Source: a virus
Lineage: Duplodnaviria; Caudoviricetes
DNA length: 64,000 nt
Direction: 5' to 3' (one strand)
Virus record (IMG/VR): IMGVR_UViG_3300029288_005873
Span: 352,001 to 416,000 of that record
This document shows positions 7,410 to 38,930 of this stretch, piece by piece. How positions within the stretch are numbered: the first letter of the stretch is position 1; each line of letters opens with the position of its first letter. The notes under the pieces were generated by a model. It had not been told where the DNA came from, made no database searches, and worked only from the letters and a program-made list of their open reading frames with translations. The translations under genes and the position numbers were made by a program.

Positions 7410-7418
7410 TATAAATTC

Positions 7419-20769: not shown

Positions 20770-21795
20770 CTAGCCAACAGCCACGTTTTTACGACCAACA
20801 GCAGTACCGCGCGGGTTCACAATACCAATACCGATGATCTCATTGACCACCCACCCAAGCTTTAACTGTTTAGGTTCATCAGCTGGCAATACCTCGATAT
20901 CCTGCCTAATAGGCATCACGCCCACGAACTCAGGGTCTGCGGTCCCGAAGACGGTGCCCGGAGGAACAATCTTCGACACGATGATGTCGGCGCCCCAGAT
21001 GTGAGCATAGAGACCAGTCTGGAGGATCTCGCGCATCGTCACGGGATCAACTTCTCCACCCGTTCCAGCAGCCTGACCACCACCAGAACCCCAGTTCAGG
21101 ATATCATTAAACTCAATGATATTCATGAGGAACTTAGTTGTTACAAGGTCCCAACGGTCAACCTGGACCTTGATCTCAGACAGGTCGCGCTTGAGCAGAC
21201 CAGCATCTGCGATATCCTGGGCAGTGTTCTCACCACCAAGGGTCGAGTCAGCTGCATAGTCGAGGGCTGCGAAGATATTGGCGTCTTCCTGAGCCTGGAT
21301 CTCCTGCCTCGCCTTCTGCTGAGCTCTGTCGATCACGTTGAACCGGCGCCTACGCACTTCAGCAATACGTACGGTTGGGTTCGAGACAAGCTCGAACTCG
21401 GGAACGGTCACACGGTCACCGAACACGCGGCTCTCAGGAGCAGCACCGTTCGAGGACACGACAACGGCCGCTACGTCAATATCGCGGTCGTACACGGGCA
21501 GGGCGCCCTGGGGCAGAGGGTCAATAACCAGAACTCGACGACCTACACCCTGATAATCAAGGTTTCGGCGGATCGGGTTAGCCATCGCCTGACCGAGGGC
21601 GATTTTGCCCTCCTGGGTAAGCAGAGCGCGCTTAATAAGCTCGTCACGCTGCTCGTCGTTAAACGACGGGGGCTGGGCAAGCCCGGTATTGGCGGGCTCC
21701 ATGTTTTCAAGAATCGTGGCATACTTTACGATCTGAGCGAGAGCGTCCTTAACATTGCCGGCGTTCATTTCGCCATGGGTATTAAACATAGACAT
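20770..21795 (-). CDS. Major capsid protein, HK97 fold (encapsulin-like sequence features)
   Basis: Follows the scaffold and decoration genes; strong SD and codon bias; PIRRNLDYQGVGRR...PLPQG, P(EF)EL...EDANIF and a C-terminal GIVNP pattern. Confidence 0.88.
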   Translation of the reverse strand: MSMFNTHGEMNAGNVKDALAQIVKYATILENMEPANTGLAQPPSFNDEQRDELIKRALLTQEGKIALGQAMANPIRRNLDYQGVGRRVLVIDPLPQGALPVYDRDIDVAAVVVSSNGAAPESRVFGDRVTVPEFELVSNPTVRIAEVRRRRFNVIDRAQQKARQEIQAQEDANIFAALDYAADSTLGGENTAQDIADAGLLKRDLSEIKVQVDRWDLVTTKFLMNIIEFNDILNWGSGGGQAAGTGGEVDPVTMREILQTGLYAHIWGADIIVSKIVPPGTVFGTADPEFVGVMPIRQDIEVLPADEPKQLKLGWVVNEIIGIGIVNPRGTAVGRKNVAVG

Positions 21796-21925
21796 TTGTC
21801 CTTCTCCTCCTATTGGATGTCTTTCTCTCCTTTCTTCCTAAGTTCCCCAAAGGGGAACGGTGTTACATAAAACTCTTTCACTGTGTCTTGCGGGAAATCA
21901 CTTTCCCGCAAGACGAAAGTTTTCA

Positions 21926-22579
21926 CTACTCGACGAAGTAGGAGATCACAGCATGCTCCCAAGCGGTCGCGGCGCCAACAAGCGAGGCTGGCGTACGGAC
22001 GAGGGAACGGGCAGTGGACTCGAACTCCACGAAGCGAGCGACAACTGGACCAGCGGCATCAACGGAACGGGCCTGGGTCGGAGTGAGAACGCCTAGGATG
22101 GTCGGGTAGATTCTGGACTGCGGAACCAGCGATGTGTTACTGGGGAGCAGACCGAGAGATACGCTGGTGTCAACAGCATCAAGAGTGACGCCATAAAGAC
22201 CAGGCTTATCCCAAGCAGTCACCTTTCCAGAACCAGAGGCAGTGTGAGGTCCAAGGTTTGTTCCTGTGGTCGAGAGACCAGCGGGAATTCCAATCACCTG
22301 ACCAAACAGGGTGCCGTATCCCGAAGTACCATCGTCGGTAAGCCACAGTGGACGAGCAGTAGAAACTGCAACGTTCAGCGTAAGACCAACACGCATACTC
22401 TGGGTGTAATTGGTGTATCCATCGAGCACATCGGCCGCAGCCTTCTCAGTAGCGGTATTGGTGCGCGAAAGAGCAACCAGGGTACAGATCTCTCCGCCCT
22501 TGACGCTAGAGAGATATCCGTCCTCGAAATCGAACTGACCAAGCGGCTGAATGCCGGGGTTAAGGATCTTGAGAGCCAT
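21926..22579 (-). CDS. Head decoration/cement protein (start revised to MALKILNPG)
   Basis: AGGAG-n-ATG at 22579; immediately upstream of the MCP; SGKVTAWDKPGLY motif paralogous to 28162..28857. Confidence 0.7.
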   Translation of the reverse strand: MALKILNPGIQPLGQFDFEDGYLSSVKGGEICTLVALSRTNTATEKAAADVLDGYTNYTQSMRVGLTLNVAVSTARPLWLTDDGTSGYGTLFGQVIGIPAGLSTTGTNLGPHTASGSGKVTAWDKPGLYGVTLDAVDTSVSLGLLPSNTSLVPQSRIYPTILGVLTPTQARSVDAAGPVVARFVEFESTARSLVRTPASLVGAATAWEHAVISYFVE

Positions 22580-22663
22580 TTTTTTTTGTCTCCTATTGCC
22601 GCTGGAGGTTACTCCTCCTGCGGAAGTTGTCTTTGTCCTGGCCCTATGGGCCTTGTCAATAGT

Positions 22664-22686
22664 ATGCGAAACTATTGATAGTTTTT
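22664..22686 (-). promoter_or_regulatory. Putative late promoter motif, copy 3 (drives decoration and MCP genes)
   Basis: AAAAAC TATCAATA GTTTC GCAT. Confidence 0.7.
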
Positions 22687-22728
22687 CATGAAAAAAATCG
22701 GTGCTTTGCGCTACTGCCAAAAAATCCT

Positions 22729-24006
22729 TTATTGCCAACCCTTTGGAGCCACGCGATCGGCAACTGCCAATAAGCGACGTAGATTATCAGGTTCCATTAC
22801 AGTGCCGTCTGGACGCAATATTGAACCATTGATATCCCAACCACGACGACCAATGATCTCGGCAGTCTCTGGATTTCCGCTAAAAACTGCGTCGAGCTTA
22901 TCTTCAAGACGACGGATTGCGTTCATGGTAGCAGTATCTAGTTTTCCACTATGTAAAGTACCAAAACCACGTTCAGATAGAAGCTCCTGAATTTCCGTTA
23001 TGCGATCGGGTCCAGGAAGTTCCTGCTTTACAGCCTGCGGCTTTTTTGCCTGGAATTTAGCCATTGCTTTATTAGCCACATTCGACAAAGCGTTTATGGA
23101 AAGTCTGGTATCCTCAAAAGTTTTTTTGAGGTCTGAAAATTTTTCATTCAGTCTAGACTTTGCTCCAAGCCCAAGTTTATACCATTCTTCAGGCATTGCA
23201 ACCATAGCCTCGACAATCGTAGAGGCTTGAGTCATGTCTGTTTCAAAGTTATCAAGCGCTGTACTGTATTTAGCAAGCCCAGCCTTATCATCTGGAAGCG
23301 GCATCGGTTGCCTAAATTTTGCAATATACGGTCCAAGGATTGATTGTAACTTATTCGCAAGACCAGCAAGCTCAGGTTTTTCGCCTACAGATGAAGCTGT
23401 ATCTAAAACATCCTGTATGTCGGTGGCAAGACCTTCACGCACGCTTGTAAGCTTTGACCCAAACCAATTCCATGCCCCAACGCCAAGTCCTCCCCACATC
23501 AGTAGCTTGGCTACAGGGGCTAATAGTGAAAGGAATGCCTCCTTATGGAGGCTATCGACGAAAGGGAAGGAAGCTAGCCTCTCAATGGTCAAATCGACCC
23601 TTGCCGCAGCTTCTGCCTTGCCTTCGCCTTCTAGATCATTTGCTAGCGAAACTAGGATCTCAACAAGGCTAGCATGTTTTCCAGTAAGCGCACCGGTCGG
23701 CATACATGTAGCAATCTCGATATCCTTATCCTGCTGTTGAACTATATTCTCGACAAGTGCTCCATCGCCCATAGATTCAGCTGGTTTAGCATCCTTTGGA
23801 TGCGCCTTACCAACAAGATCCTCGCCCGTCTCTTTAGTAACATTGTATTCTTTTCCAGGTTCATACCGTCTATGGTCCTTTACGGGCGTCTCCTTGTCGG
23901 TGTTTCCGACAACGGGTTTGCCGAGGTCCGAGACGATAAGGCCGCTTTCGGCGGCGATCTTGGCGAACTCGTCCATCACCAGGCTGCCGTTCCATTCTCT
24001 GCTCAT
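22729..24006 (-). CDS. Putative internal head/ejection protein (AHP module, helical tag, hydrophobic segment, PG-binding-like C-terminus)
   Basis: Modules shared with 25016..27802 and the scaffold; SGKLDTAT. Confidence 0.6.
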   Translation of the reverse strand: MSREWNGSLVMDEFAKIAAESGLIVSDLGKPVVGNTDKETPVKDHRRYEPGKEYNVTKETGEDLVGKAHPKDAKPAESMGDGALVENIVQQQDKDIEIATCMPTGALTGKHASLVEILVSLANDLEGEGKAEAAARVDLTIERLASFPFVDSLHKEAFLSLLAPVAKLLMWGGLGVGAWNWFGSKLTSVREGLATDIQDVLDTASSVGEKPELAGLANKLQSILGPYIAKFRQPMPLPDDKAGLAKYSTALDNFETDMTQASTIVEAMVAMPEEWYKLGLGAKSRLNEKFSDLKKTFEDTRLSINALSNVANKAMAKFQAKKPQAVKQELPGPDRITEIQELLSERGFGTLHSGKLDTATMNAIRRLEDKLDAVFSGNPETAEIIGRRGWDINGSILRPDGTVMEPDNLRRLLAVADRVAPKGWQ

Positions 24007-25013
24007 CTTGGTCCTCCAAATGCGCCTTCCAGCTCCTTCTCGGTTTGCGATTTTCGATCAGCTGGGGCTTCTTTCGTGTATGTTGCTTGCGGCAAAAGTA
24101 TCCTGGCCATTTCAGCCAGCGGGGGTGCCGCAAATGTCCTGTAACTATTTATTTCCTGGATTGGGGCACCACCATGCGCTGCGCCAACCTCGGTCAAAAC
24201 CCTTTTCATCTCTTTGGATCCTACCGGAGAATATCCCTTCAAATCGATAAAGATACGCGAAAAAGGTTTTCCTGCCCTATCCTTTATAGCATTATCAAGA
24301 GTCATAATTAGCGATCTCTCGACATTATTTGCTGTATTCATATAAAGACGCATACCCGGAGCCGATGGTGCTTGGTTACCTGATGTCTGAGACGTTGTCC
24401 CATTACCTATACCGACCATATTTAGCATAGCTCCAGTTCCAGCATGAAGACCAAAACCAATTATTACAGCTTTCAAAAGTTGGTACAATGCGCCGCTGAT
24501 TAGCCCTTTTGAAGCATATCCTCCCATTCCCATGAGAGATCGAAACTTTGAGGCAAGATTACCCGCAGCTTCTTTGCCAATATTATCTGAACCATGCGTC
24601 CAAGCTACAACTAAAGATTGTCTATCAATTGTGCCACGTTTCTCAAGCTCGGCGCGAAATGCGGACGATTTTCCCAATAATCCACCAACAAGACGATCTA
24701 CAATCCCGCCAGAGGCTGATTCTAAGGACGATTCCGATACTGGTCCAGTATTTCCACTCCCAGGTCCTTTACCTATTGCCCTATCTATCCAGGCACCTAT
24801 AGTACCAGCATCAACTCCAAGAACCTCCTTGGAAGCAGAAAATAGGAGGGATAGAATCCACCTTCCCTTAAGCATTAAAATCCCAGGAACAACATATTGG
24901 AGAAGTATCTCAAATGGACGCTCCTGAATCTGTCTAATGTTCCCGAACTCTTTGATCGCTTGCTGTACAAAGGTGTTCGCAATCCCTTGGAGGTCAAGAG
25001 CCTGTTTTTCCAT
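24003..25013 (-). CDS. Putative internal head/ejection protein with hydrophobic Gly-rich segments
   Basis: Position in the head cluster; KQA/KEA sites. Confidence 0.55.
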   Translation of the reverse strand: MEKQALDLQGIANTFVQQAIKEFGNIRQIQERPFEILLQYVVPGILMLKGRWILSLLFSASKEVLGVDAGTIGAWIDRAIGKGPGSGNTGPVSESSLESASGGIVDRLVGGLLGKSSAFRAELEKRGTIDRQSLVVAWTHGSDNIGKEAAGNLASKFRSLMGMGGYASKGLISGALYQLLKAVIIGFGLHAGTGAMLNMVGIGNGTTSQTSGNQAPSAPGMRLYMNTANNVERSLIMTLDNAIKDRAGKPFSRIFIDLKGYSPVGSKEMKRVLTEVGAAHGGAPIQEINSYRTFAAPPLAEMARILLPQATYTKEAPADRKSQTEKELEGAFGGPR

Positions 25014-25015
25014 GG

Positions 25016-27802
25016 CTACCGTCCCTTTGGAAGTGTCGTGTATATGTCGTGAATTTCGCCCTGCCTAAGGCGTAGTTCACTAAGTAGATCGTCCCTCATT
25101 GGCCTTGGAGCCCTCATTGTAGTATTTTGTAGCCGGGCGATCTCTTTACGCAGAAAATCTATTACCTCATGCGCAATAACATATGGTTCGCCTTCTCTTT
25201 TTGTCTTATCCCACCAATACCTCTGAGCCCATGACGCAAAAGCTGCTGGATCATTTGTGAATCCAGAAAGCTCTGGCAAATTATATACTTGGTCCTCCAA
25301 TGATGATTTGACTGGAGTCGATTCGTGACTATTACCATGTGTACCGTGTGCGCCTTCTAGTGTCCCAAATTCTCCAATACCACCATGCTGTTTACGCCCT
25401 TGTTCACTAGAGTCAGGCATACGATATGAAGGGATACCAGTACCTATTCCTCTTAACTGACCAATAAGTCGGTCCATAATTGCTGCCCGAGCCTGAACAT
25501 CTACACCTTCTTTGGCAAGTGCCCAGCTTTCATCACTATCGTCGCGCTCCAATGATTGCGCATATGCCTGTGCTAGCTTTAGTGCAATAGCTGCGTTCTC
25601 TTTTGGCGAGTTCTTGGCCGATATGCCGCTGTTCGGCTGAGCTGACAACGACTTGATAAAAGCTTGCGCATCAGAAAGACTCTTTTCCTGAACCTTTATT
25701 CCAGGTGCGATACTAACAGTAGCACGTGCAGAATAAAGCCGTCCAAGATGCTTTGCCATATTGAGAGCACCATTGATAGCCTGATCACTTGGACCATTGC
25801 CAGCTGGTGCGGGCGGTCGACCGATATCCCAACCAGGACCTTTGCGCTCTATAATTGCATTACGAAGAGCATTCCATGCATTCCATGTCTCAGAACCCCA
25901 TTTACCGTCAGCCTGATGCGACGGCAGAGGAATACCTGCCGACATCATAGCATTCTGTAGCTGCTGTAAATTTGGGCGTTGTTTCTTAGCTACGCCTTTG
26001 CCACGCGGAGCCGGTGCGCCTTTACTTGGAGTCTTGGCTGGAGCATTTCCTGGCACCGGCAGATCAAGCGGTCCAATAGGTGCGCCGGGGATTCCAACTG
26101 GGGGAGCAGCCTCACGTACAATTTTATCGTTTTTAATAGAAGCAAAAAGGTCAGCCAATTTCGGATTACCTTTTAAGGGTCTAAGATAGCTGTTCCACAG
26201 AATTTTGTTGTATTCGTTTAGTGTACCCCTTTCAGAAAGGGAAGTTGGCTCTTTTTGTTGGCGCAATTTCTTCAGCCAATCTATTGTCTCGTTCAACTTT
26301 CCCTTAAGCATACGGTTTGCTTCAGTTTCCTTTACTGGATCCGGAAGTGCTTTAACAAGCCCATTTAGAAGCATATCGACAGTGCCAAGGTATCGTTTAT
26401 GCGAAAGCTTTAGCACATCACGAAGCTGTTTTTCGTATGCCTGCTCTTTTGGCGATGTATCGTGAAACCACTCTGGATGCTGTTGTTCAGCAATAGTCAA
26501 ATTGGCTTTGATTCCACGCAAATATGCCCCAATCATAAGCATAGTCCCAGAAGGAGCACCAGCCCGAAGCGACTGCTCAATCTCTGGAAATTCCTTATCC
26601 AATGCTGCCGTAACTTTAGCTTCAGTCTTTGTACTATTATCGCGCTGAGCATTATACAGATCGCGCTGATAGTTTTTCAGCTTTGCTATTGTTTCAGCTT
26701 TGTTGCGAACATATTCTGGCTCGTGTTGAGCCCAATCATTTATTTTTTCACGTAACGCATCTATGAGGGCGACTATCCCCCATAGTGCTACTTTAACGAC
26801 GAAAGGGCGGGGGGAGCCCTCCCTCAACTCGTCGAGTGTCTTATCGACAAGCAGGGCGGCCTCCGTCTTACCCTCGGCATCCAGCCTGTTGGCCAAAGCT
26901 ACAAGCTGCTGTGCCACAAAAACAGCTTGTTTGCCTGTAGGTTTTGTCTCCACCACCTTTATGTCTCTTTTCTGCTGCTCGACCACAGTCTCTACTTTAC
27001 CGCCCTCTTCTTTAGCGGGAGCCATAGTTGGTCCGCCGCCAGGATGAGCCTCACCAATAAGCTGTTCTCCAGTTTCACCAGTAATATCATATAGCTTATC
27101 AATAGCCTCTTTATAGATCCTAAGCTGCTCGTCTACTGCCTCTGCAATTTTTGTCTCGCCCATGTCGTCGAGGTCGTTGGCAAGCGACACAAGTTCGGTA
27201 ACTATAGCCGAGGCTTTGGGCGCAAGTTCTTTTATTGTAGGGTACTGCCATGGCTGTGTCATGTGAGGCTCCTTGATCAGTTCCAATGGCGCAGAGGGTT
27301 CCTTTGGAATTTCCTCCTTAACTGCTGCTGGGGCAGGTATGCGCCTTTTCTGAGCAATGTCTGTGAGAAACGACAATATATTCATGAGTGTGTTAACATT
27401 TGGACGTACACTCGTAAGTCGTGAGACAAGGTCTGTCAAATTTTGTTGCCCTAAAACAAGAGCTATTTCGGAAAGAGTTGTAAGTGTCTTGGGTCCCCAT
27501 TTTCCATCCACACCATTAGGAGCGGATTTTGTAGCCAACGCAGCTCTGAATCGTGGAGCTATACTGGACATGATCCCTTGGATCTGCTTAACAAGACCCT
27601 CGACATATTCACCAGATTGCTCGGAGACTCTCTCTTCAGAATTTGATTGATCCTGATTATTAATCATATGCTCAGGTATATGCTCTGGCTCTGGAGCAAA
27701 TGTTGGCTCTTGGGCGGAATGCTTTACCATCCATCCTTTTTCGGCAGCTATGGCCTCAAACTCGCGCATAACTGCACTCTCGCCTTGTCTCATGTGACGC
27801 AT
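25016..27802 (-). CDS. Large putative internal head protein with two peptidoglycan-binding-like domains
   Basis: VDGKWGPKT and ADGKWGSET (PG_binding_1-like); two helical tags; AHP module. Confidence 0.65.
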   Translation of the reverse strand: MRHMRQGESAVMREFEAIAAEKGWMVKHSAQEPTFAPEPEHIPEHMINNQDQSNSEERVSEQSGEYVEGLVKQIQGIMSSIAPRFRAALATKSAPNGVDGKWGPKTLTTLSEIALVLGQQNLTDLVSRLTSVRPNVNTLMNILSFLTDIAQKRRIPAPAAVKEEIPKEPSAPLELIKEPHMTQPWQYPTIKELAPKASAIVTELVSLANDLDDMGETKIAEAVDEQLRIYKEAIDKLYDITGETGEQLIGEAHPGGGPTMAPAKEEGGKVETVVEQQKRDIKVVETKPTGKQAVFVAQQLVALANRLDAEGKTEAALLVDKTLDELREGSPRPFVVKVALWGIVALIDALREKINDWAQHEPEYVRNKAETIAKLKNYQRDLYNAQRDNSTKTEAKVTAALDKEFPEIEQSLRAGAPSGTMLMIGAYLRGIKANLTIAEQQHPEWFHDTSPKEQAYEKQLRDVLKLSHKRYLGTVDMLLNGLVKALPDPVKETEANRMLKGKLNETIDWLKKLRQQKEPTSLSERGTLNEYNKILWNSYLRPLKGNPKLADLFASIKNDKIVREAAPPVGIPGAPIGPLDLPVPGNAPAKTPSKGAPAPRGKGVAKKQRPNLQQLQNAMMSAGIPLPSHQADGKWGSETWNAWNALRNAIIERKGPGWDIGRPPAPAGNGPSDQAINGALNMAKHLGRLYSARATVSIAPGIKVQEKSLSDAQAFIKSLSAQPNSGISAKNSPKENAAIALKLAQAYAQSLERDDSDESWALAKEGVDVQARAAIMDRLIGQLRGIGTGIPSYRMPDSSEQGRKQHGGIGEFGTLEGAHGTHGNSHESTPVKSSLEDQVYNLPELSGFTNDPAAFASWAQRYWWDKTKREGEPYVIAHEVIDFLRKEIARLQNTTMRAPRPMRDDLLSELRLRQGEIHDIYTTLPKGR

Positions 27803-27803
27803 C

Positions 27804-28217
27804 TTATTTTCCTCCGGCGATATCTTTGATGGCGCAAAGCGCCCTTTCTATACGATAAGCGATTTTCGTACGCCTAGCTTCAGCGATATCTTGCGCCATC
27901 TTTTCAATAGCTTCAACCAGCGCCACGTCTGCAGCAAAAGCCTTTGGCTCTACGTTATCCAATTCTGGAGCCTTTGGCTCCTCAATATCTTCATCTTCCC
28001 AGGTCTCTTCCTGGATAGGTTGGAAAGCCTCAGCAGGCGTACCTGTAAGCAAGTTAGTCTCTTTGGCTATTTTTTCAAGCTCAGACATTACTTCGCTTGC
28101 CTGCCATGCACGCTTGTCCTCTGGTACAAAAGCCATCGAAATCCTCCTAGAATAATAACATTTACAACCAAAGAAACTCAAGAGTACCAATAAGTGCAGA
28201 AGGTGGGGCTGTAACAA
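27804..28217 (-). CDS. Small head-associated protein (start probably MAFVPE)
   Basis: WQASEVMSELEKIA shared with the N-termini of 22729 and 25016. Confidence 0.6.
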   Translation of the reverse strand: MLQPHLLHLLVLLSFFGCKCYYSRRISMAFVPEDKRAWQASEVMSELEKIAKETNLLTGTPAEAFQPIQEETWEDEDIEEPKAPELDNVEPKAFAADVALVEAIEKMAQDIAEARRTKIAYRIERALCAIKDIAGGK

Positions 28218-28857
28218 GTCCTATAGCAGGGTGGTTTGGTGTAGCCTGCTTTGTAGTCAACTTGCCCTCCTCGTTCACAAAAAGAGCCGCATTGAGCGGA
28301 TATTTCTGCGTTGAGTCATACTGGTCGGTAGCATATATGCCGCGAGTAATCCATATTGTTATTCTGTTGCTCCCGACAGTTGTGTCCTCGCCAGGTAGAT
28401 TTGGAACCCTATATACGTAACTTACAACAGTTTTGATACTATCAGGTCTTCCGTCTCCATCTGAATCGTAGTTGAGTACACTTCCAGCTGGAGCCATAAG
28501 TACACCATTAACAGGATTCAAAACAAGATTTTCATAGTCAGCGACAAAGCTTGATGCAACCACATCGGCAAAGCGTAATTCCTGTTTAACATCAGTCGTA
28601 CTTACCCAACGTCCATAGGCATCAAGAATTCCTGTAGCTGGAATGACCACAATTTCATCAGGCGATGGTTTTGTAAACGCCGTAGTTCTAGCGTCATCTA
28701 TAATACCAAAAGGTGTTGTCCCATCAGAAAGTCCAGCAACAATATCCTGACCAAACAGCGTGAGCTGAGCAATACAGCCAGGCTCGAACACCGATGAGGA
28801 GTCGACTGGATAAGACACTGGCAGCGCATTGCCTATCTGTATCAGCTGCAGAACCAT
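28162..28857 (-). CDS. Second head-decoration-like protein
   Basis: GSNRITIW..RGIYATDQYD...LFVNEEGKLT; paralogous layout to 21926..22579. Confidence 0.6.
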   Translation of the reverse strand: MVLQLIQIGNALPVSYPVDSSSVFEPGCIAQLTLFGQDIVAGLSDGTTPFGIIDDARTTAFTKPSPDEIVVIPATGILDAYGRWVSTTDVKQELRFADVVASSFVADYENLVLNPVNGVLMAPAGSVLNYDSDGDGRPDSIKTVVSYVYRVPNLPGEDTTVGSNRITIWITRGIYATDQYDSTQKYPLNAALFVNEEGKLTTKQATPNHPAIGLVTAPPSALIGTLEFLWL

Positions 28858-28866
28858 GTTTGTTCC

Positions 28867-29652
28867 TTACTTGCTTTTTGAGGTTAGCGGTCCACTTTTT
28901 CCAGGACCATGTTCAGGACCCGGCTCATCCAGATATTTCTTGTCGACTTTATCCAAAGCTGTACGGATGGCATATTCTTCAGCCTTGTCACCCTTAAGAC
29001 CCTTGTCCTTCTTAGCGGTCTCTAAAGCACTTTTGTAGGTCTTAGAGAACTTTTCCCCTTCTTTCTTACTCTTTTTGTTGAGGAAAGATACCCACTCAGA
29101 ATGGCTACGACCCTTCTTGGCCTTCTTCTTCGCTTCGGCAACAATTGGACGCTGACCAGAAAGTTTCTGAAGTGCCTCGTCGAGTACCTGCGCAACCTTC
29201 GTAAAACCAACCCTGTCAAGAGCATCAGCCAGCTTTACTACATGTCCGATGGCAAAATCTATAGCAATCGCCAAACCAGCATCTGCGCACTGCGGGCATC
29301 CGTCCTCAGCCTCAACATGTTCTGGGCATCCATCTTCAGCTTTCTGGGGCACAGACTCAAGAGCTGCTTGTTTGTCCTCAGAATATTCAATCATCGGCGT
29401 GAAATCATTGTGCTCTTTGCCGAGCGCAGTTGCGCCTTCAGAACCCGCAGCCAGCCATTTGTTGTGAATAGCTGCCGCCTCTGGCTGAGTTTTTGCAGCA
29501 TCCATTTCCGCCTTAAAAGCCTGCGACGCAGGTCCTTTTGTCCACCATGCGTCTTCTGCCTTTTTGTATAGTCCAACAAAATCCTCGTCTTTAAGCTTGG
29601 CATTAAAGGCTGAAGCAATCTCGTCTGAGCAATAATGCTTGAGTGTGGTCAT
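28867..29652 (-). CDS. Putative internal head protein (start revised to MTTLKH)
   Basis: SDEI N-motif, helical tag, Lys-rich C-terminus. Confidence 0.6.
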   Translation of the reverse strand: MTTLKHYCSDEIASAFNAKLKDEDFVGLYKKAEDAWWTKGPASQAFKAEMDAAKTQPEAAAIHNKWLAAGSEGATALGKEHNDFTPMIEYSEDKQAALESVPQKAEDGCPEHVEAEDGCPQCADAGLAIAIDFAIGHVVKLADALDRVGFTKVAQVLDEALQKLSGQRPIVAEAKKKAKKGRSHSEWVSFLNKKSKKEGEKFSKTYKSALETAKKDKGLKGDKAEEYAIRTALDKVDKKYLDEPGPEHGPGKSGPLTSKSK

Positions 29653-29677
29653 CTCACCAGTCCTCCATTGGGTTTCT

Positions 29678-30139
29678 TTACATTGACGGCTTGAAAGTCG
29701 GGCATTTTGCCAGACAGTCAAGCCGAGCCCTCATGAAGGAATCCTCAGCCTCCAGAAAGGGCGCAAAACGCTTATACACGCCATTTACCGCCTGGCAATC
29801 CCCAGGCTCAATTCCTTTGAGAGCTTCAGTAAAATCGTCATACGCAGACGCCGATTTTACTATAGTAAACAGAGCTGGAAGATTGCCAAGTTGCCTAATA
29901 GCACTATCCAGCATGTCGGCAACCGCTGTAAATCCAGCCGAATCCATATTGTCCGACAACTTGACCAAATATTCGCCTACTTGGCTCAAAGCTTGCCCGA
30001 TTTTAGTATTTGCTTGTTTGGCAGCAAATTCAAAAGCCAAGGCTAACCTATCTTCTTGTACCTTATCGGTAGAACTAGGGAAGCCTAGCCTTTCAGCCAT
30101 CGCAGCAGTGATCTCGTCAGAAACACATGATTGGCTCAT
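29678..30139 (-). CDS. Putative internal head protein, paralog of the next gene (start revised to MSQSCV)
   Basis: SDEI N-motif; LVKLSDNMDSAGFTAVADMLD tag; ATGA coupling. Confidence 0.6.
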   Translation of the reverse strand: MSQSCVSDEITAAMAERLGFPSSTDKVQEDRLALAFEFAAKQANTKIGQALSQVGEYLVKLSDNMDSAGFTAVADMLDSAIRQLGNLPALFTIVKSASAYDDFTEALKGIEPGDCQAVNGVYKRFAPFLEAEDSFMRARLDCLAKCPTFKPSM

Positions 30140-30327: not shown

Positions 30328-30330
30328 AAG

Positions 30331-30365: not shown

Positions 30366-30371
30366 CGAACA

Positions 30372-33300
30372 CTACTTCCTTCTAGGTACCCAAAGGCGGT
30401 TAAGCTGATCGGGAAGATCTACCCTCTCTGGCTCTTCCTCTCTAATGCCAACCTGTACCGCTGATTCGGACTTAGAAGCGGTCTTTACCGTACCAGTCGT
30501 ACGGGACAGTGCGCGTTTGAAAGCCTCAAAAGAAGGCTCGTCAAACTTCATGATGTCATCGACCTGCTTGTTCATGACGTCACGTCCCCTGCTAATAAGA
30601 CCCTTCTCCTGCATGTCAAGTGCCAGGTCAACGGCGCGACGAAGCTTCAGTCTATAAGACTCTGCTTCAGCAGCTGCCTTCTTCTGGGCAAATTCCTTAG
30701 TCAGGTCCTGACCAAACTGCTTGCTCGCCGGATCGCCCTCGCCGAAATACTGTTTCCAATACTTCGCAGCTTCTGGGTCAACAGCTAGCGCCTTCAGCTT
30801 AGCATCATCAGACAGGTCGGCTACCGAAAGCTTACCAGACTTGAGCAAATCACCTAGCTTAGCAGCAGCTTCGCGAACCTTCGGCAAGGTCTCGACCTGC
30901 CTCATAATTTTTGCTTTAATCTCGTCGATTCCCTCGACATGCGCACCCTCGTCGGAGGGCTTGGTGTCAAGATTTCCAAGAGTCGTGCCGCGCTGCGGAT
31001 GCGCCTTGGGAACCATATCGGTATCCATATCAGTCGCTGGCTCCAGCTTCAGCTGATACTTGGAACCGATTTCGGCTGCGATCTTCTCGCGCCTTGCGCG
31101 CCTGCTGGCAACATCGGAAATCTTGGGTTCAGCAACTGGTTCCTCAGCAGGCTTTTCCTCATCTAGCTGACCGAGCAGTTCTGCCACCAAACGCTCCTCG
31201 TCGTCGCCCGCATCGGCATACTGTACACCGTCATCGCCGTCATTGAGTTCCTTCATGTCGATATCCTCAAGCTCTTCAACCAGACCCTCAATTTCCTCGT
31301 GGATCTCGTGCTCCTTCTCCTCCATATCTTTCTCTTTCTCATCAATCGCAAGGCGAACAAGTTCGCGCCTCTTTGCAGCACGAGCCTTCAGCATCTTCTC
31401 CAGGACTAGTTCGGCTTCGGACTTCTTCTCTTTCTTGTCCTTCTTGTCCTCTTTGCCGTCACCCTCATCTTCATCCTCTTTATCTTCTTTATCTTCCTTC
31501 TCTTTCTTACCCTTCTTATCTTTCTTGTCGCCCTTCTTATCCTCTTTATCTTCCTTCTCATCTTCCTTCTTATCCTTCTTCTCTTTCTTGTCCTTCTTTC
31601 CTTCCTTCTCCTCAAGAGCCTTCTTTAGCCCTTCTGGCATACCTTTCTTAGCTTCAATGACCAAAGCCGCTTCGCGACGAATCTCAGCATTTGCCTCAAG
31701 CGATTCAGCAGCTAGCTTCAGCAGCTCATCCATCTCAGCCCCAGAAACTAGCCCAGCTTCAATCCTCTTTCCGAGCACCTCAGAAAGGATAGCAAGCTCG
31801 TCACCACTGTCATCAAGTTCGGCACAAATGACAGAAGCGGTCTTGGTCTCGCCATCACCAACCTCGATTGGGGGAAGTTCTTCCTTTCCACCCTCACCAG
31901 TCTTGCCCTCTTCCTTGAGGATCTCCTTCAGATCGCCGAAGGCCTTTTCAGTCTCAGCAAGAGCTTCCTCGACCCTATTTGTGGTCGCCTCTGCTCCAGG
32001 CTTCTCCTCATCCTTTGGCGGTTCAATCGGAGGCATAGGTCCAGCAGGTGGAACCGGAGGCTCTGCTGCCGTAACCGTTTTACCAGTGAGGATATATGTC
32101 GTCTTTTCGAGACCATTGTTCCTGATCTCTGCCATAATACGCTTACCATAGTCCTCAGACTTCAGGTGATTCCAATAGTCCTCACGAGCAAGGTCCTCGC
32201 CATAGATTTCATCCCCAGTGGCGCTAAGAACGAGCTTATCACCAGCGTATACATCCCAATGGGCTTTCTGTCTATCGGGGGATCCAGACTTGGTACGCGG
32301 GAATTTGAACTCGGCGCGAAGCAGCTTCTGCTTCAGGGCAAGGTCATTACCAGCAAGACCGTCGTTTCCTGGCTCCATTCCCTCGCCTACCATCTGCTTA
32401 TCCTGTGTATCACGGATCTTATCCGAGTCCTCTTTCGGATAGGTTTGCGGCTCATTTACACCACCGCCTCCCTGGAAATATGCCATCGACTCGAGACCCT
32501 CGTCTTCGACAGCCTGGACAACAGGCTTACCATCTGGTCCCTTGGTTACAGAAACCTTGGTACCATCCTTCAATGTAAAGGTCTCAGCCTCGCCCTTGAC
32601 AAGCAACGCATGTCGGCGAAGTCGGCGCTCCTCTAGCTGAGCACGAGACAGCTTCTGCTTGATGGCGAGGTCGTTACCAGCAAGACCATCGCTACCAGGC
32701 TCCATTCCCTCGCCTACCATCTGCTTATCCTGTGTATCACGGATCTTATCCGAGTCCTCTTTCGGATACACCTGCGGGTCGTTCACTCCGCCTCCACCCT
32801 GGTGGTAAGCGTTCTTCTCGAATGCCGCGCGACGGGCGCGAGCCCTTTCCTTCAGATCGGACATGTTCTTTTCCTCCTTCTGTGGTGTCCTGTTTGCTGC
32901 CGCCTGGATGCTCAGGAGAGCGCCATGCATGTCGTCAAGTCTGCTCGACACTGCCGCAATCTGCGCCTCCAGGCTTCCGCTGGCAAGACGGGTCTCTCGC
33001 CCGTCAAGGGACCATGGGGGAGGTCCGCTGGACTCCGGATCCTCCGTATATGTCTGTCCACGACCCCCCGTCATATTCTTATTTCCTGCAAGCCCGTAGG
33101 GCGGCTCTACTTCTCCGCCTTCAGGGTTGTCCTCAACATGTTCAACTTCTTTTCCTTCAACATTTGATCCATCTTCAGCCGCTGGCGTTTCAAGCTTGGT
33201 TAGTTCTTCAGGCGTCATATTTCCGCCAAGCATTTCCTCCAATCTCTTGTTAGCCTTATTCTTTACGTCGGCAGATACATTCGGCGCATTTAGCAGGTCA

Positions 33301-34241
33301 ATCAGCGAACGAAAATTCGCACCTTGTCTTGGGTCCATGGCTGCCATGGCGTGAATCTTAGACACTGCGCCAACCTGATTACGTATAGCATCAATTTCGG
33401 CACGCAAACTATCAAGCTCTGCTGGAGTAACACAACCCGCCCGCTGAAGCTCTTCGATCCTTGCTTGCTTCTGCTGCGCATAACTGTTTAGACTGGCAAT
33501 TATGTGGCGAAGCTTGGCGCGCGGATCTGCTCCAGTAACAACTAAACTCAATTCAATCGGAGATAGTTCGATATTTATCTCTCCATATGTTCGTCTACTA
33601 CGCACACACGGACAGTATTCAGACTCTACTTTAGCAACATTTCCGCACTCAAAACAGATGGATTTGCCAACTGCCGTACCCATACTGACATTTGTCGCAT
33701 AACCACTTTCAACTTTGCGCGCCAAATCAGGATAGTTTTTCTTATCCAAGGCACATAGTGCAATTACTCTTTTACGTTTATTATCATAATACGTATCGAG
33801 GATAAGACCACGCACACCATCAACTGTGCTGCTTTGATGATCTTGGCACAAAGGTTTGCCAACCCAGAGACGATAGGCTTTCTTCAATTCAGATTCAGCG
33901 AAAATGTCCCCGTTGTTATTTTTCGCTGGTTTTATATTTGAATCAGAACATTTCCATTTCCAAGAACCAGTTTTTGGATTAATTTCCCACTCAGATGTCA
34001 AAGGTTTACCATCTTTTCCAAGAATAGGTTCTCCCGTATCCTGATTAATCAATATGGACTCTGCCGCATGCATCATCACACAACTAAAATATGTGAAATC
34101 ATTAGCCTTTGGAGCAATAGCCTTTAGATCTTTGGCATATTTTGTAAACCTTTCAAGCAAAACGGCATCGGAGAGAACCTTTTCAGGCGAATGAATTTCC
34201 TCCAATGTAAACTGCGAATCAGCATACTTCAAAAAAACCAT
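30372..34241 (-). CDS. Prohead protease fused to a long scaffold region
   Basis: NNNGDIF...GKPLCQDH...GLILD...VSMGT...CFEC...C.C...EIN...IELSLV..GAD (HK97/herpes-type protease motifs), followed by coiled-coil and K/E/D-rich scaffold. Confidence 0.85.
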   Translation of the reverse strand: MVFLKYADSQFTLEEIHSPEKVLSDAVLLERFTKYAKDLKAIAPKANDFTYFSCVMMHAAESILINQDTGEPILGKDGKPLTSEWEINPKTGSWKWKCSDSNIKPAKNNNGDIFAESELKKAYRLWVGKPLCQDHQSSTVDGVRGLILDTYYDNKRKRVIALCALDKKNYPDLARKVESGYATNVSMGTAVGKSICFECGNVAKVESEYCPCVRSRRTYGEINIELSPIELSLVVTGADPRAKLRHIIASLNSYAQQKQARIEELQRAGCVTPAELDSLRAEIDAIRNQVGAVSKIHAMAAMDPRQGANFRSLIDLLNAPNVSADVKNKANKRLEEMLGGNMTPEELTKLETPAAEDGSNVEGKEVEHVEDNPEGGEVEPPYGLAGNKNMTGGRGQTYTEDPESSGPPPWSLDGRETRLASGSLEAQIAAVSSRLDDMHGALLSIQAAANRTPQKEEKNMSDLKERARARRAAFEKNAYHQGGGGVNDPQVYPKEDSDKIRDTQDKQMVGEGMEPGSDGLAGNDLAIKQKLSRAQLEERRLRRHALLVKGEAETFTLKDGTKVSVTKGPDGKPVVQAVEDEGLESMAYFQGGGGVNEPQTYPKEDSDKIRDTQDKQMVGEGMEPGNDGLAGNDLALKQKLLRAEFKFPRTKSGSPDRQKAHWDVYAGDKLVLSATGDEIYGEDLAREDYWNHLKSEDYGKRIMAEIRNNGLEKTTYILTGKTVTAAEPPVPPAGPMPPIEPPKDEEKPGAEATTNRVEEALAETEKAFGDLKEILKEEGKTGEGGKEELPPIEVGDGETKTASVICAELDDSGDELAILSEVLGKRIEAGLVSGAEMDELLKLAAESLEANAEIRREAALVIEAKKGMPEGLKKALEEKEGKKDKKEKKDKKEDEKEDKEDKKGDKKDKKGKKEKEDKEDKEDEDEGDGKEDKKDKKEKKSEAELVLEKMLKARAAKRRELVRLAIDEKEKDMEEKEHEIHEEIEGLVEELEDIDMKELNDGDDGVQYADAGDDEERLVAELLGQLDEEKPAEEPVAEPKISDVASRRARREKIAAEIGSKYQLKLEPATDMDTDMVPKAHPQRGTTLGNLDTKPSDEGAHVEGIDEIKAKIMRQVETLPKVREAAAKLGDLLKSGKLSVADLSDDAKLKALAVDPEAAKYWKQYFGEGDPASKQFGQDLTKEFAQKKAAAEAESYRLKLRRAVDLALDMQEKGLISRGRDVMNKQVDDIMKFDEPSFEAFKRALSRTTGTVKTASKSESAVQVGIREEEPERVDLPDQLNRLWVPRRK
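32315..32810 (-). repeat. Internal tandem duplication (about 57 aa x2) in the scaffold
   Basis: 71-bp identical core at 32371-32441 and 32698-32768; peptide Y[HF]QGGGGVN[DE]PQ.YPKEDSDKIRDTQDKQMVGEGMEPG.DGLAGNDLA. Confidence 0.95.
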
Positions 34242-34341
34242 TTGATTCCTCCAGAACTTTTGCCTTTTCGCAAATTCTCCTTGGCAGGAAGCCGTTGGTG
34301 GTTATCAGCGCGAAAGCAATCCTTATTTAGTCACAAAATAC

Positions 34342-34503
34342 TTAATTCTTTCCTTTCTCCGTATCTGTTGGAATCTCGACCACATTCGGCAGATCTTGCT
34401 CCTCAGTATGGTCGATGATTTCTTTGACAACTTCATCCATATCAGCAAACACGTGTTCAATTGCGCAATCATCGTCGCCATCAGCATTTTTAATAAATCC
34501 CAT
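34342..34503 (-). CDS. Small acidic protein (53 aa; below the ORF-track cutoff)
   Basis: MGFIKNADGDDDCAIEHVFADMDEVV...; GGAGG SD; N-terminus resembles the protease N-terminus MVFLKYAD. Confidence 0.6.
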   Translation of the reverse strand: MGFIKNADGDDDCAIEHVFADMDEVVKEIIDHTEEQDLPNVVEIPTDTEKGKN

Positions 34504-34504
34504 A

Positions 34505-35104: not shown

Positions 35105-35113
35105 GTCATGCTA

Positions 35114-35136
35114 ATGCTGAATTATTGATAGATTTT
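35114..35136 (-). promoter_or_regulatory. Putative late promoter motif, copy 4
   Basis: AAAATC TATCAATA ATTCA GCAT. Confidence 0.7.
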
Positions 35137-35164
35137 GGGGACTTGGTATAGGATTGCGGGAGGT

Positions 35165-35773
35165 TTACTGACCCAAGGTTCCGTAATTGCTAAAGAATGG
35201 TTCCAATACAAAACCTTGGTTCATATTGGAAAGAAGACCGTCTTCCTGGAGTCCAACAGCTCCAGCCATAAAGTCGCCATCTTCATTCATCTGGAGGACG
35301 CCCCCTGGGGTAAGAGGAAGAAGACGACATGCGCAGTTACCATTAGTACACACCCCAGAACCAGGAAGACCCTCTTCTCTCCATTGACGCAATGTGCGCA
35401 TTCGTCCTTGACGGTCACCACATTCCTGACAGGAATTGGGAAACCTGTTACAAAACCAAAGAAAAAGGCGTTCATCTACGGGACCAGATTGTTTTCGACG
35501 AATCATATCATCCAGGCGGTCACCAGCAGCATTATCATATTTGTTGGCTGCTCCAGAATCGTTTTTCTTTTTGGAAAAAAGTTGCTTCAGATGTTCATAT
35601 TTTTTGCGCAACCAAGAAGAAAGTTTCGACCATTCCGCCGCATGTCGGATAAGACAATCGACAAAATCAGCCTCTCGTAACAGACCACGCTTGTCAAATT
35701 CATCTGCAAGACGCATAAGAGCAAATAGCTCGGTCATCGACCGCCTCCAGGATATCCTGTTGGTATCGAGCAT
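35165..35773 (-). CDS. Protein with helical tag and a MuF/SPP1-gp7-like Cys cluster
   Basis: SCQEC..RQG......W...GLPG...C..NCACRL; start probably MTELFAL. Confidence 0.55.
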   Translation of the reverse strand: MLDTNRISWRRSMTELFALMRLADEFDKRGLLREADFVDCLIRHAAEWSKLSSWLRKKYEHLKQLFSKKKNDSGAANKYDNAAGDRLDDMIRRKQSGPVDERLFLWFCNRFPNSCQECGDRQGRMRTLRQWREEGLPGSGVCTNGNCACRLLPLTPGGVLQMNEDGDFMAGAVGLQEDGLLSNMNQGFVLEPFFSNYGTLGQ

Positions 35774-37203
35774 ATAGAAAATGGAGAAAGAATAGTATCA
35801 ATTCCACTGTCATAGGACATACTGTCAGTGGTATAATGTAAGTCAGACGGAGTTGGCTCAAGCAAGTTCTGTTCAGCATGCGGCTCAATTTCAGCAAGCA
35901 TGCGACGCATTGCGGCAGTATCAACTGGAGGGTGTCTATGAGTATGTGGATCGTGCTGGCATGTTTCCGTAAACCTATCAATCATATGTGGAAAACGATC
36001 TTTGAATCCGAAACTTTTTGCTTCAGCATAAGCAAGGTCACAGGGCCAGCCACTTTCAGTGCGATATCGTGCAACCACACCACCCGTACGATCTGCGCCA
36101 TGTCTACAATGTACAAAAGCTGGTACCTCGTGTAGAAATCCAAAAATGTTAGGAGTAAGAACTTCCCAACCCTTATCTTCTGGACGTCCATCAGACAGTA
36201 GAGCATGGACGTGATGTATACCAAGTTTTCGGCACCAATCAGCAAGCTCAGGCATGTCGTCATTAAGTGTAACGATACGACGTACACCTAATTTATCACG
36301 CATTGCAGCAAGTTGTTCAATATTATCTGGTTGTCTGCCACGATATAGACCATTGGAGACTTTTGCAAAATTCCTTGGGAATTCATGATATGGATCCATG
36401 CGTGCTCTAAGTAATGCTATCGTCGGATCATCTAACATACCATTAGGCTCCAGAAAATTCATTTCCTGCCAACGGGCAAGATCCATATCAAATTCTGGCA
36501 TTGACGGTATGCGCCCAATCGTTCCAATAATATGACCTAGGCATCTAGCAACATCCCTTCGTCGTACAGCAGAAAGGTTATGCTTACGCGCAACATCAAG
36601 CGCTAATACAACTGGTACGCTTCCCTGCCTAAGAATTCTCAATCCGTCGCGAATAGCTCCTGCTACATTTCCTGCTGCAATCTTTGCGGTAAAAGCAAGA
36701 TCAGGTTCACCCATTGGAGCATTGGGCATAAATTTTTGCCTAATGCTGTCTAACTGGATGGCAGCATGTACAACATCAGGATACACTTTCCTTAAAGTTT
36801 CTCTAGCCTTAGCCTCTGCTTCAGACTCTCCAAGAAAAGGTGTAGCACCTGGGGAAATTGGACGTTCGGGTCCAATATGTCCACTCTCATGAGCTAAAAC
36901 CTCAACTATTGCGCGTTCAAGCGCGCTAGAAAAATCAGCAAGAGTGGGTTTGGCTCCTGCGGACTGTTCTCGAACCATTTGCTCTATTCGACCTTTGAAT
37001 AAATGAATTTCTTGCGGGTCATGCCCCTTCCCCGACTGGACATGACCGAGTTCTCCCCCACCACCAGAATGGACGATTATTTTACGAACACGAGAAAGTA
37101 GTCCTGGATCCCTCATCTTTATGCGCGACACAGCCTGCTGGACAGCTGGATCCAATGGTTCAATCACAACATCCATGGCACGTTTACTAATGGGGAGTTT
37201 CAT
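35734..37203 (-). CDS. Multidomain protein: HExxH domain, PG-binding-like segment, Tyr/dual-specificity phosphatase
   Basis: LAHESGH; WQEMNFLEPNGMLDDPT; NFAKV..GLYRG.QP and VHCRHGADRTG (CX5R). Confidence 0.85.
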   Translation of the reverse strand: MKLPISKRAMDVVIEPLDPAVQQAVSRIKMRDPGLLSRVRKIIVHSGGGGELGHVQSGKGHDPQEIHLFKGRIEQMVREQSAGAKPTLADFSSALERAIVEVLAHESGHIGPERPISPGATPFLGESEAEAKARETLRKVYPDVVHAAIQLDSIRQKFMPNAPMGEPDLAFTAKIAAGNVAGAIRDGLRILRQGSVPVVLALDVARKHNLSAVRRRDVARCLGHIIGTIGRIPSMPEFDMDLARWQEMNFLEPNGMLDDPTIALLRARMDPYHEFPRNFAKVSNGLYRGRQPDNIEQLAAMRDKLGVRRIVTLNDDMPELADWCRKLGIHHVHALLSDGRPEDKGWEVLTPNIFGFLHEVPAFVHCRHGADRTGGVVARYRTESGWPCDLAYAEAKSFGFKDRFPHMIDRFTETCQHDPHTHRHPPVDTAAMRRMLAEIEPHAEQNLLEPTPSDLHYTTDSMSYDSGIDTILSPFSICSIPTGYPGGGR

Positions 37204-38930
37204 ATTTTTGCCCCGATCGGTGTGCGTTTACGCGCAGGAATCTGATGAAGCATAAGATTTGCTACTTCATCCATTACGCGCTTAACAAAGAATGGATTAA
37301 GACCAGATAAAATATTCTTAACTAGCGATATACTTTGTCCAATAGCGGCAGTCTGTGGCATCTTTTTCTGGCTCATTTGACCCGTGGGAACCCTCAATAT
37401 CTTTCCCCTAATGCGCTGCATATATCTTGCTTTGTCCTTATCTGGTACACGGAACATAAGAAAATTGATAATCTTTACAATAGACTCAGCAGTTCTACGA
37501 ACTGGATCCTGTGCTCTCTTAGAAATTGGAACAAGCCTAGTGGCTCTACTAGACAAAGGAAGCTCATCATCCGACATCATGTCTAGATCAACACCATCTT
37601 CTTTTGCTTTAATACGCTTCTTTACTGCATCTATAACAGGACGCAAAATTTCCTTCTCCATCTCCCAATCGGACATTGGTCCTGTTTCCCTATTACCAAG
37701 CAATTCTGTTATTTCTGGATCTAATTCAGTCCGTTGTGCTTTATCGTAGTCGATTACAGTTGGTTCATCGCCCTCAGCATAATCATGATCAGCCAATTTC
37801 TTTTTGATCGGCATAATGGATGTTACTTTTTCCGCCCATCTTTTTCGGATGGGAGCCCCAATTACTGGATGTCTAACCCGTTCCAATTCACGTTTTGTTT
37901 GTTCCCAAGCTGTATTTTCTCGTTTAACATCTTCTGGGGATGCTGTAGTACCATCGGGAAATACCCAACTCGAATCATGTTGTTCCTCTGGATGTTTTGG
38001 CCAGTATTCTTCAATTGTAGTTTCAGACACCAAAAACTCGGGAGCACCAATGAGTAGATCATATCCAACAGGTGAAACACCTTTGACGAAACTGGAAATT
38101 ACACGATTCCTTGCCCGCTCGGCATGTTTGCGCGTTCGATAGAATGATATAGGAATTGTTCCCCACATTAGGGCAAAAGTCCCATGGGTAAGCCAGTTTT
38201 CCGGACCGTGTGGCATAAGATCTTTGATTTTGATACCGGCTTTTTGGAGAGCACGAATTCCAGCTTCAAAACGGGAAAGTTCTGTTCCGTCAGGAAATTT
38301 AACTACGGCAGAATCATTCCTCAACATTTCCATTAGTTTAGGAGTTTTGAAGACTTCCATCAGTTCTTCAGGTTTCCACATGGAAGGATCCAAGTGGATC
38401 GGCAAACGTTCCATTGCGGCACGCTTGGAGAATGGCAACAAAGCGGCCTGACGCGATGAAAGTGGAATAGAATCGATTTTCCTCAAAGTCTCATTCAAAT
38501 CGCGCTCATGCTCCATCTCATCCTCCAGTATCGCCACAACTATACTGCTGGTGTCTTTATCTGTCTCCTCTGTAACCCGAAGCAACTCACGATAAACTGC
38601 TATGGCGCATTTTTCCGCTTCCAGGTTTTGTTCCAATACTTCAACAGCAGAAAATCCTTCAGGGTCTACGTATCTACAATTAGAATTAGCCGCCCACTTA
38701 CTCGGATCACCTATCGGTCTAGCACCAAGTTGAACAAGGCGACTATATATTGCGTCAGCATGCCTCCTCTCATCATTGGCATGTTCAAGTAGTTCACCAA
38801 CCGCATGGGCTGGACCAAGAATAGCCTTTGCCCCAGCCCAATATTGATGGAATGCAAACCACTCATCAACATAAGCTTTACTAAGAAGTTCGACTACCCC
38901 AGGCATATTACCTTTCCCGCTCATAGCCAT
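37200..38930 (-). CDS. Multidomain protein with N-terminal ferritin-like (Dps-like/bacterioferritin) domain
   Basis: DEWFAFHQYW, EHANDERRHA, EAEKCAI, EDEMEHE di-iron motifs. Confidence 0.85.
   Translation of the reverse strand: MAMSGKGNMPGVVELLSKAYVDEWFAFHQYWAGAKAILGPAHAVGELLEHANDERRHADAIYSRLVQLGARPIGDPSKWAANSNCRYVDPEGFSAVEVLEQNLEAEKCAIAVYRELLRVTEETDKDTSSIVVAILEDEMEHERDLNETLRKIDSIPLSSRQAALLPFSKRAAMERLPIHLDPSMWKPEELMEVFKTPKLMEMLRNDSAVVKFPDGTELSRFEAGIRALQKAGIKIKDLMPHGPENWLTHGTFALMWGTIPISFYRTRKHAERARNRVISSFVKGVSPVGYDLLIGAPEFLVSETTIEEYWPKHPEEQHDSSWVFPDGTTASPEDVKRENTAWEQTKRELERVRHPVIGAPIRKRWAEKVTSIMPIKKKLADHDYAEGDEPTVIDYDKAQRTELDPEITELLGNRETGPMSDWEMEKEILRPVIDAVKKRIKAKEDGVDLDMMSDDELPLSSRATRLVPISKRAQDPVRRTAESIVKIINFLMFRVPDKDKARYMQRIRGKILRVPTGQMSQKKMPQTAAIGQSISLVKNILSGLNPFFVKRVMDEVANLMLHQIPARKRTPIGAKI

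Follow-up and report, generated by a model that had tools for sequence, protein, structure and literature searches.

The locus described here is a stretch of 64,000 nucleotides (the window) from a tailed-phage record in IMG/VR (IMGVR_UViG_3300029288_005873), in which a major capsid gene and the gene for a ferritin-containing polyprotein lie in one block of head genes whose products share a short Lys-x-Ala peptide signal. The window covers bases 352,001-416,000 of a single virus contig of 441,904 bases, and its minus strand holds every long open reading frame (ORF). Terminase, portal and prohead protease genes share the block with the capsid gene, which encodes 341 amino acids (aa), and the order of portal, protease and capsid matches that of the homologues gp14, gp19 and gp27 in phage G. 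From this gene content, the host of the capsid protein is identified as a phage G-like jumbo phage with a 442-kb genome and the region as its head-assembly block. The principal features are the following.

56692-58521, minus strand: terminase large subunit (PF05876, E 4e-18).
53518-56679, minus strand: portal protein with a LAGLIDADG intein (phage G gp14 homologue, E 8e-73; Hint and LAGLIDADG matches).
37200-38906, minus strand: ferritin-containing polyprotein, 568 aa from a likely start at ATG 38906 (open frame to 38930), with PF00210 and linker motifs.
38469-38891, minus strand: predicted DpsL (Dps-like, thioferritin-type) four-helix bundle (PDB matches, residue set).
38418-38435, minus strand: PFSKRA linker after the DpsL domain (motif scan; the same motif follows DpsL in the related record P0272).
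37512-37559, minus strand: tandem PLSSRA/PISKRA linker before a conserved C-terminal domain (motif scan).
30372-34241, minus strand: 1289-aa product in which a prohead protease is joined to a long scaffold-like region (match to the head maturation protease phrog_18299, E 5e-12; phage G gp19 homologue, E 9e-32).
20770-21795, minus strand: 341-aa major capsid protein of the phage G gp27 family, with the HK97 fold (PDB 6wkk, phrog_2522, structure model).
21718-21732, minus strand: IVKYA, aa 22-26, a hydrophobic-x-K-x-A site in the N-terminal arm of the capsid protein (K24 and A26 invariant).

The sharing of a hydrophobic-x-Lys-x-Ala signal among the head-block proteins is shown statistically. Its long form, P-[ILFV]-S-[KRS]-[RHK]-A, has 8 occurrences in the head block, where 0.04 were expected, and 3 in the rest of the genome, where 0.27 were expected; the outside copies of the motif family are concentrated in a single polyprotein, of 1216 aa, encoded at a second late-looking locus. 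For G001, the closest near-complete relative, 4 copies were counted in the block (0.03 expected) and none in the other 336 ORFs. The long motif, also described by the narrower pattern P-[ILF]-S-[KR]-[RH]-A, belongs to accessory proteins of this sub-lineage, which carry it at the N-terminus as a leader or between modules as a linker. Counting leaders with the K-x-type core, there are two at N-termini in this genome and 22 in phage G. None of 25 motif copies across eight proteins lies inside a Pfam domain, and 14 of them fall within 40 aa of a domain edge, against 3 expected. The same modules are fused in some relatives and split in others; L/I-S-K-R-A marks their junctions, and the longest chains reach 2,602 and 2,718 aa. 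The motif codons vary freely, which places the selection at the protein level, and a DNA-repeat origin was ruled out by this synonymous variation. An earlier reading of the window (the original prediction) had proposed that the cluster encodes tagged cargo; the short tag is real, and loading into the head is the probable outcome of it.

The shorter hydrophobic-x-K-x-A core occurs 42 times over the whole head block against 22.8 expected (1.85-fold). Within the otherwise variable arm of the capsid protein, K24 and A26 of IVKYA are invariant in 27 relatives, and this site is predicted from the alignment to be a propeptide cleavage site. The core is also associated with a helical hairpin of about 30 aa, which is encoded in the following genes.

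22729-29721, minus strand: head-block genes with products of 425, 336, 928, 137, 231 and 284 aa (hairpin hidden Markov model and K-x-A site list).

The model, built from relatives, places the hairpin in the 425-, 928- and 284-aa products (at 22729, twice at 25016, and at 28867; E<=1e-5), and K-x-A sites occur in all products of this group except the 231-aa one. Ten hairpin matches with E<1e-4 were obtained among 616 ORFs, nine of them in or beside the head block. In relatives, about one-third of hairpins are followed by K-x-A, against a background of 9%. A comparison of the hairpin with the PDB gave no family apart from designed TPR proteins, and a complex prediction of the capsid protein with the hairpin scored 0.00 and was counted neither way.

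The ferritin-like domain with linker motifs that had been reported for the cluster was recovered: PF00210 matches aa 14-154 of ORF 37200-38930 (E 1.4e-19), and the motifs lie at aa 156, 166, 458 and 468. The layout of the polyprotein is DpsL, motif, swappable module, motif pair, and conserved head-block C-terminal domain. The best PDB match of the ferritin domain was B. fragilis 2VZB (E 2.4e-32), followed by P. aeruginosa 8W1D (E 1.4e-15), and the top five were all named DpsL or Dps. The residues E23, E54, H57, E106, E138 and H141 and the cysteine pair C85/C108 can be read in the sequence, and we take these to be the DpsL ligand set, with an in-subunit di-iron site. By these matches and residues, the domain is a DpsL in the sense of the published family definition (PMC11150526). 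A cut at PFSKRA would free a subunit of 163 aa, and natural DpsL proteins measure 159-177. The same fusion in the same gene order is found in one other record, P0272, where the module between the motifs is swapped for an unrelated one and the DpsL and C-terminal domains are retained. The C-terminal domain was found in the same block of six relatives and P0272, and in G001 it forms a separate 127-aa ORF that begins with the motif; a family search for this domain found none. A free-standing DpsL without a tag is present in another phage contig (L111:9989-10483), where it adjoins anaerobic ribonucleotide reductase genes. The statement that capsid and ferritin share a cluster held for the block, since both genes are in the terminase-portal-protease-capsid block of a tailed jumbo phage, and not for immediate proximity, since 15.4 kb separate the end of the ferritin gene from the capsid gene downstream of it.

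Further tagged or multidomain products are encoded on either side of the polyprotein gene.

35734-37203, minus strand: 489-aa protein with an N-terminal leader ending in PISKRA (37177-37203), HExxH at aa 105 and a DSP-type phosphatase (PF03162, PF22784).
41851-43947, minus strand: polyprotein with LigD 3'-phosphoesterase, 2H phosphoesterase and four motifs at aa 161, 457, 680 and 689 (Pfam, motif scan).
43944-48077, minus strand: polyprotein of 1377 aa with an HExxH motif and a DJ-1/PfpI domain (Pfam, motif scan).
48074-51880, minus strand: polyprotein with a leader ending in PISRHA, an ATP-dependent DNA ligase and a weak LigD primase-polymerase match (Pfam, PHROG, motif scan).

The leader of the 489-aa protein is also present in G001. 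LigD-like parts (3'-phosphoesterase, ligase and weak primase-polymerase) are distributed over the tagged polyproteins at 41851-51880, which suggests a virion-delivered end-joining repair kit. At the second late-looking locus (L089:6696-15679, genome ~252,700-261,700), the 1216-aa polyprotein combines ASCH, HExxH and topoisomerase IB parts and has the motif three times. This locus also encodes a protein with the hairpin, a 351-aa protein with degenerate motifs in tandem at its end, and a paralogue of the product encoded just upstream of the capsid gene (E 9e-66). The relative G010 (L101:2885-10693) encodes a 2602-aa polyprotein in which seven LSKR[AT] joints separate topoisomerase IB, 2H/Acb1-like, repeat and poly(A)-polymerase-like modules.

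The signal was also followed in phage G. Its head genes gp4-21 contain 22 K-x-A sites against 6.7 expected. An RL-x(1,2)-K-x-[AS] leader opens 22 ORFs spread over the genome, whereas shuffling of the N-termini gave 0.86, with a maximum of 5. Leader-bearing genes include gp13, gp141 (of the gp336 multigene family) and the ferritin-like gp346.

NC_023719.1, loci L081 and L164-L186: phage G leader ORFs of the MKRL-x-K-x-[AS] type, e.g. 11937, 28218, 81748, 178671, 255160, 255911, 258975, 388147 and 482110.

The RL-type leader is a candidate capsid-targeting sequence of a cultured megaphage. The gp346 protein has been reported in phage G particle proteomics (PMC12484599). A third, DUF5856-like ferritin domain is fused to hairpin-like segments in the head block of G010; four other relatives encode homologues of this domain at a distance from their head genes, on the opposite strand. 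Since DpsL, the DUF5856-like domain and gp346 are not close to each other, three separate recruitments are suggested. Neither the leader list nor the three recruitments appeared in any of the literature searched, and that search, which covered few subscription papers, returned nothing relevant on a K-x-A site, a phage G targeting leader or a virion-packaged ferritin. A wider proposal can be offered tentatively and with some doubt: phage G-like jumbo phages might load head enzymes by a Lys-x-Ala address and cleavage code, with three kinds of ferritin recruited independently (DpsL here and in P0272, the DUF5856-like domain in G010, and gp346 in phage G).

The 341-aa protein is, with hardly any doubt on the combined sequence and structural data, an ordinary genome-packaging phage capsid protein of the gp27 type. 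The sole PDB sequence match was 6WKK, phage G gp27 (E 2.8e-93), with 52% identity over 84% of the protein, and the PHROG assignment was phrog_2522 major head protein (E 3e-75). The isolated phages that matched best were phage G (52%), Tunturi_5, Rhodococcus E3, Motura, and mycobacteriophages such as Myrna and Catera. Relatives are plentiful, with 331 matching stretches in viral contigs, the best 80 of the 331 at 73-97%. In the capsid tree one clade contains the protein together with phage G, Tunturi_5 and Rctr197k (support 97/97); the tree is near the limit of alignability between groups and was relied on solely for placement within the G-like clade. A deep capsid profile found other phage capsids first (9jwb, E 0.0014) and a Pyrococcus virus-like particle only at E 0.79, and 17 of 93 capsid family members match PF05065. 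A structure model from 93 diverse sequences reached a predicted local distance difference test score (pLDDT) of 86, compared with 50 from a shallow alignment. Against viral models (BFVD), Foldseek placed gp27 (E 3.7e-35, 51% identity) far above generic HK97 proteins, and the Atlas structure matches were phage-capsid-type clusters.

The original prediction had read three segments of this ORF as encapsulin-like and had suggested that the lineage may be a viral analogue or relative of cargo-loading encapsulin systems. The segments are present, at aa 83-97, 132-147 and 162-175; they are not specific, as they align closely with phage G gp27, and the PDB sequence search with the capsid protein returned no encapsulin at E<=10. 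If the protein were a close family-1 encapsulin relative, with the ferritin loaded by an encapsulin-type peptide, the presence of a ferritin-family gene in the capsid gene's block would be explained, as would the encapsulins at the top of the PDB fold searches with the capsid model. Foldseek listed 6wkv first (E 5e-11) and the HK97 prohead at E 5.7e-11, and a second search gave Z scores of 17.8, 17.2 and 17.0 for the encapsulins 9i8e, 2e0z and 6x8m and 16.7 for the HK97 prohead. Encapsulins, HK97 proheads and other phage capsids were therefore level with one another, at 9-16% identity, whereas gp27 was far better in the BFVD search. Since 6WKK was missing from both PDB fold-search outputs, those searches cannot rank it against encapsulins; the BFVD search did contain gp27.

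Profile and peptide searches decided against the encapsulin explanation. The PF04454 (Linocin_M18) profile matched nothing in the whole genome, while control genomes do match, and it matched 0 of 93 capsid family members. By hhalign, the capsid profile had a probability of 0.9% to family-1 encapsulins, represented by a shallow profile of nine actinobacterial sequences, against 96.9% to prophage capsid proteins. The family-1 (GSL-type C-terminal) targeting peptide, searched by pattern and blastp-short in 616 ORFs, was not found (best E 1.4), and the ferritin is of the DpsL kind. The encapsulin definition excludes neighbourhoods with phage packaging genes (PMC8346489), and terminase, portal and prohead protease are all present here; cargo is looked for within ~5 kb, and the ferritin gene is 15.4 kb off. 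The HK97 fold of the capsid model is common to all tailed-phage capsids. Procapsids in general resemble encapsulins (PMC13669383), and from this and the tie in the fold searches the first impression was deduced to reflect the shared compact fold. The likeness is an ordinary, generic one and the link is without importance; a close encapsulin relationship was refuted at the sequence level and is regarded as exceedingly improbable. Of the two relationships suggested, that of a relative gave way to the grouping of the capsid with ordinary phage capsids in the phage G clade, and that of an analogue survives in a loose convergent sense, as a ferritin-family domain carries a tag common to head proteins, the tag resembling a signal for T4-type targeting and cleavage and not an encapsulin cargo-loading peptide.

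The prohead protease is the presumed reader of the signal. Its putative catalytic residues H135 (33837-33839) and S186 (33684-33686) are invariant in 12 sequences, including phage G gp19, and by analogy with HK97 and assemblin-type proteases they would form part of an apparently intact active enzyme. The cut at the signal could come after Lys, as in HK97, or after Ala, as in herpesvirus assemblins. The scaffold-like region of the same product contains, at aa ~474-640, a near-perfect internal repeat of ~60 aa, and a FEKNA site precedes the first copy.

We consider it reasonably probable that these data describe a T4-like system of capsid targeting and prohead-protease processing into which ferritin-family domains were recruited three times. 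In this proposal the K-x-A signal would be a prohead protease site and, as an N-terminal leader, an address like the T4 capsid-targeting sequence, which has ten residues (PMC9026906). The reading of the signal by the prohead protease is the more secure part and is judged likely. Tagged polyproteins carrying ligase, phosphoesterases, phosphatase and DpsL would assemble with the core of the prohead and be separated by cleavage into individual enzymes as the head matures, as in SPN3US, where gp245 performs A-x-E processing (PMC10052503). The DpsL may be a recently added passenger, freed as a 163-aa subunit by the cut after PFSKRA; the balance tips slightly towards its presence inside the virion, where it could oxidise or bind Fe(II) and so protect packaged or newly injected DNA from oxidative damage. 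The tagged-cargo system would thus work like that of T4, with a different code and a different protease, and group-3 jumbo phages are described as having no gp21 homologues (PMC7824862).

Several observations weigh against this proposal. G001 has 97% capsid identity and continuous sequence over the locus, and it is without DpsL; PF00210 is above the cut-off in only 2 of 33 related records (mostly fragments), in both cases distant from the capsid gene. The absence of DpsL from G001 and nearly all relatives searched implies that it is dispensable. The DpsL sits at the very N-terminus of its polyprotein, with no leader ahead of it and no hairpin. The list of phage G particle proteins, given in the text of PMC12484599, includes polymerases, gyrase and helicases as well, which makes the detection of gp346 weak evidence, and no cleavage-site map for phage G was found in the literature. 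About 80% of SPN3US head proteins are uncleaved (PMC10052503), so that motif and packaging need not coincide. The loose pattern is enriched 1.85-fold in the block yet also 1.28-fold elsewhere, the motif patterns were defined after inspection of the sequence, and some of the counted proteins are orthologues.

The main competing explanation accepts the motif as a processing site and moves the cutting to the cytoplasm, by the phage protease or by the polyproteins' own HExxH modules, so that DpsL would act unpackaged in the cell. HExxH motifs are indeed found in three products, of 489, 1377 and 1216 aa, the last being the tagged protein encoded outside the window; self-processing by such domains has been proposed for polyvalent proteins (PMC5512222), and DpsL is without its own leader here and free-standing in other phages (L111). 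This explanation was nevertheless considered rather unlikely, because the capsid arm keeps the K-x-A core without variation and the head genes of phage G have an excess of it, the long motif is restricted to the head block in G001, and leaders of 8-10 residues release no domain and make best sense as addresses. It was also considered that the motif may be an uncleaved basic linker or docking peptide spread by module shuffling, with the ferritin a chance insertion into a late operon. The patchy distribution of the ferritin among relatives, the tandem and degenerate motif copies, which suggest duplication, and the tendency of linkers to avoid domains regardless of role would all agree with this. 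Opposed to it are the K and A residues, whose positions are fixed both in the capsid arms and in the leaders of phage G, the synonymous variation that excludes a DNA repeat, and the gain of the tag by each of three unrelated ferritin-family domains, and it was judged quite improbable.

One further conserved gene lies next to the capsid gene.

21926-22579, likely start 22579, minus strand: conserved gene immediately upstream of the capsid gene (homologue at the same place in 9 relatives).

By its position only, the product is a candidate decoration protein; it showed no sequence match to phage G gp26. Portal length varies from 614 to 1418 aa among relatives, and some relatives have terminase insertions. 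Downstream of the capsid gene, at 18309-20656 and 6525-7409 of the window, are genes of homing-endonuclease type: one LAGLIDADG protein has HNH-associated repeats, a second protein joins HNH repeats to a methyltransferase-like region, and another LAGLIDADG-like ORF was seen by eye. Frequent DGY tripeptides were also seen by eye in virion-type proteins at 1114-9395, downstream of the capsid gene. Scans for promoters and terminators gave counts at the chance level (29 against 23.8 and 23 against 18.3).

If the proposed system is real, the virion would carry its own iron-handling, DNA-protecting activity and would be a convergent functional analogue of ferritin-loaded encapsulins. If the tag is both the address and the cut site of a phage G-type head protease, sequence alone would predict which proteins are delivered with the DNA by these widespread huge phages, and for phage G, a cultured megaphage, it would supply 22 candidate internal proteins.

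The closest known counterparts each share part of this arrangement. Family-1 encapsulins with ferritin-like cargo (PMC8346489) likewise have a compact HK97 fold and a ferritin-family protein with a short tag in the same block; unlike them, the present protein has no profile match and no GSL-type peptide, its cargo gene is dispensable and 15 kb away, and its shell, which has a portal, terminase and protease to go with it, packages a genome of 442 kb. The DpsL proteins of B. fragilis (2VZB), P. aeruginosa (PA4880, 8W1D) and S. solfataricus (2CLB) are the best PDB matches, with a shared residue set and a length similar to that of the released subunit; unlike these, the DpsL here is fused to the front of a phage polyprotein and is known from its sequence. 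Polyvalent proteins (PMC5512222) are also long chains of unrelated enzyme domains among virion genes and have 2H phosphoesterase, ligase, HExxH peptidase-like and topoisomerase IB domains in common with the present set, but here a fixed peptide marks the module borders, and the text of PMC5512222 contains neither 'linker' nor 'ferritin'. Phage G has the homologous portal and protease in the same order and the same K-x-A enrichment in its head genes. Its gp27 is without the 43-aa N-terminal arm that carries the invariant K-x-A site here, the protease here is fused to a scaffold-like region of ~1,000 aa, and the accessory genes, which in phage G are small leader-bearing ORFs, are here large polyproteins. 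T4, with its capsid-targeting sequence and gp21 (PMC9026906), and SPN3US similarly place a short signal on unrelated proteins and on core head proteins, with the protease in the block, and both systems were shown by experiment, whereas the present one was deduced from sequence. In the strict sense it does not belong with T4, as the site is Lys-x-Ala and not Glu-ending and the protease is a gp19 homologue and not of the gp21 family, and in contrast to both T4 and SPN3US the signal here also lies inside polyproteins.

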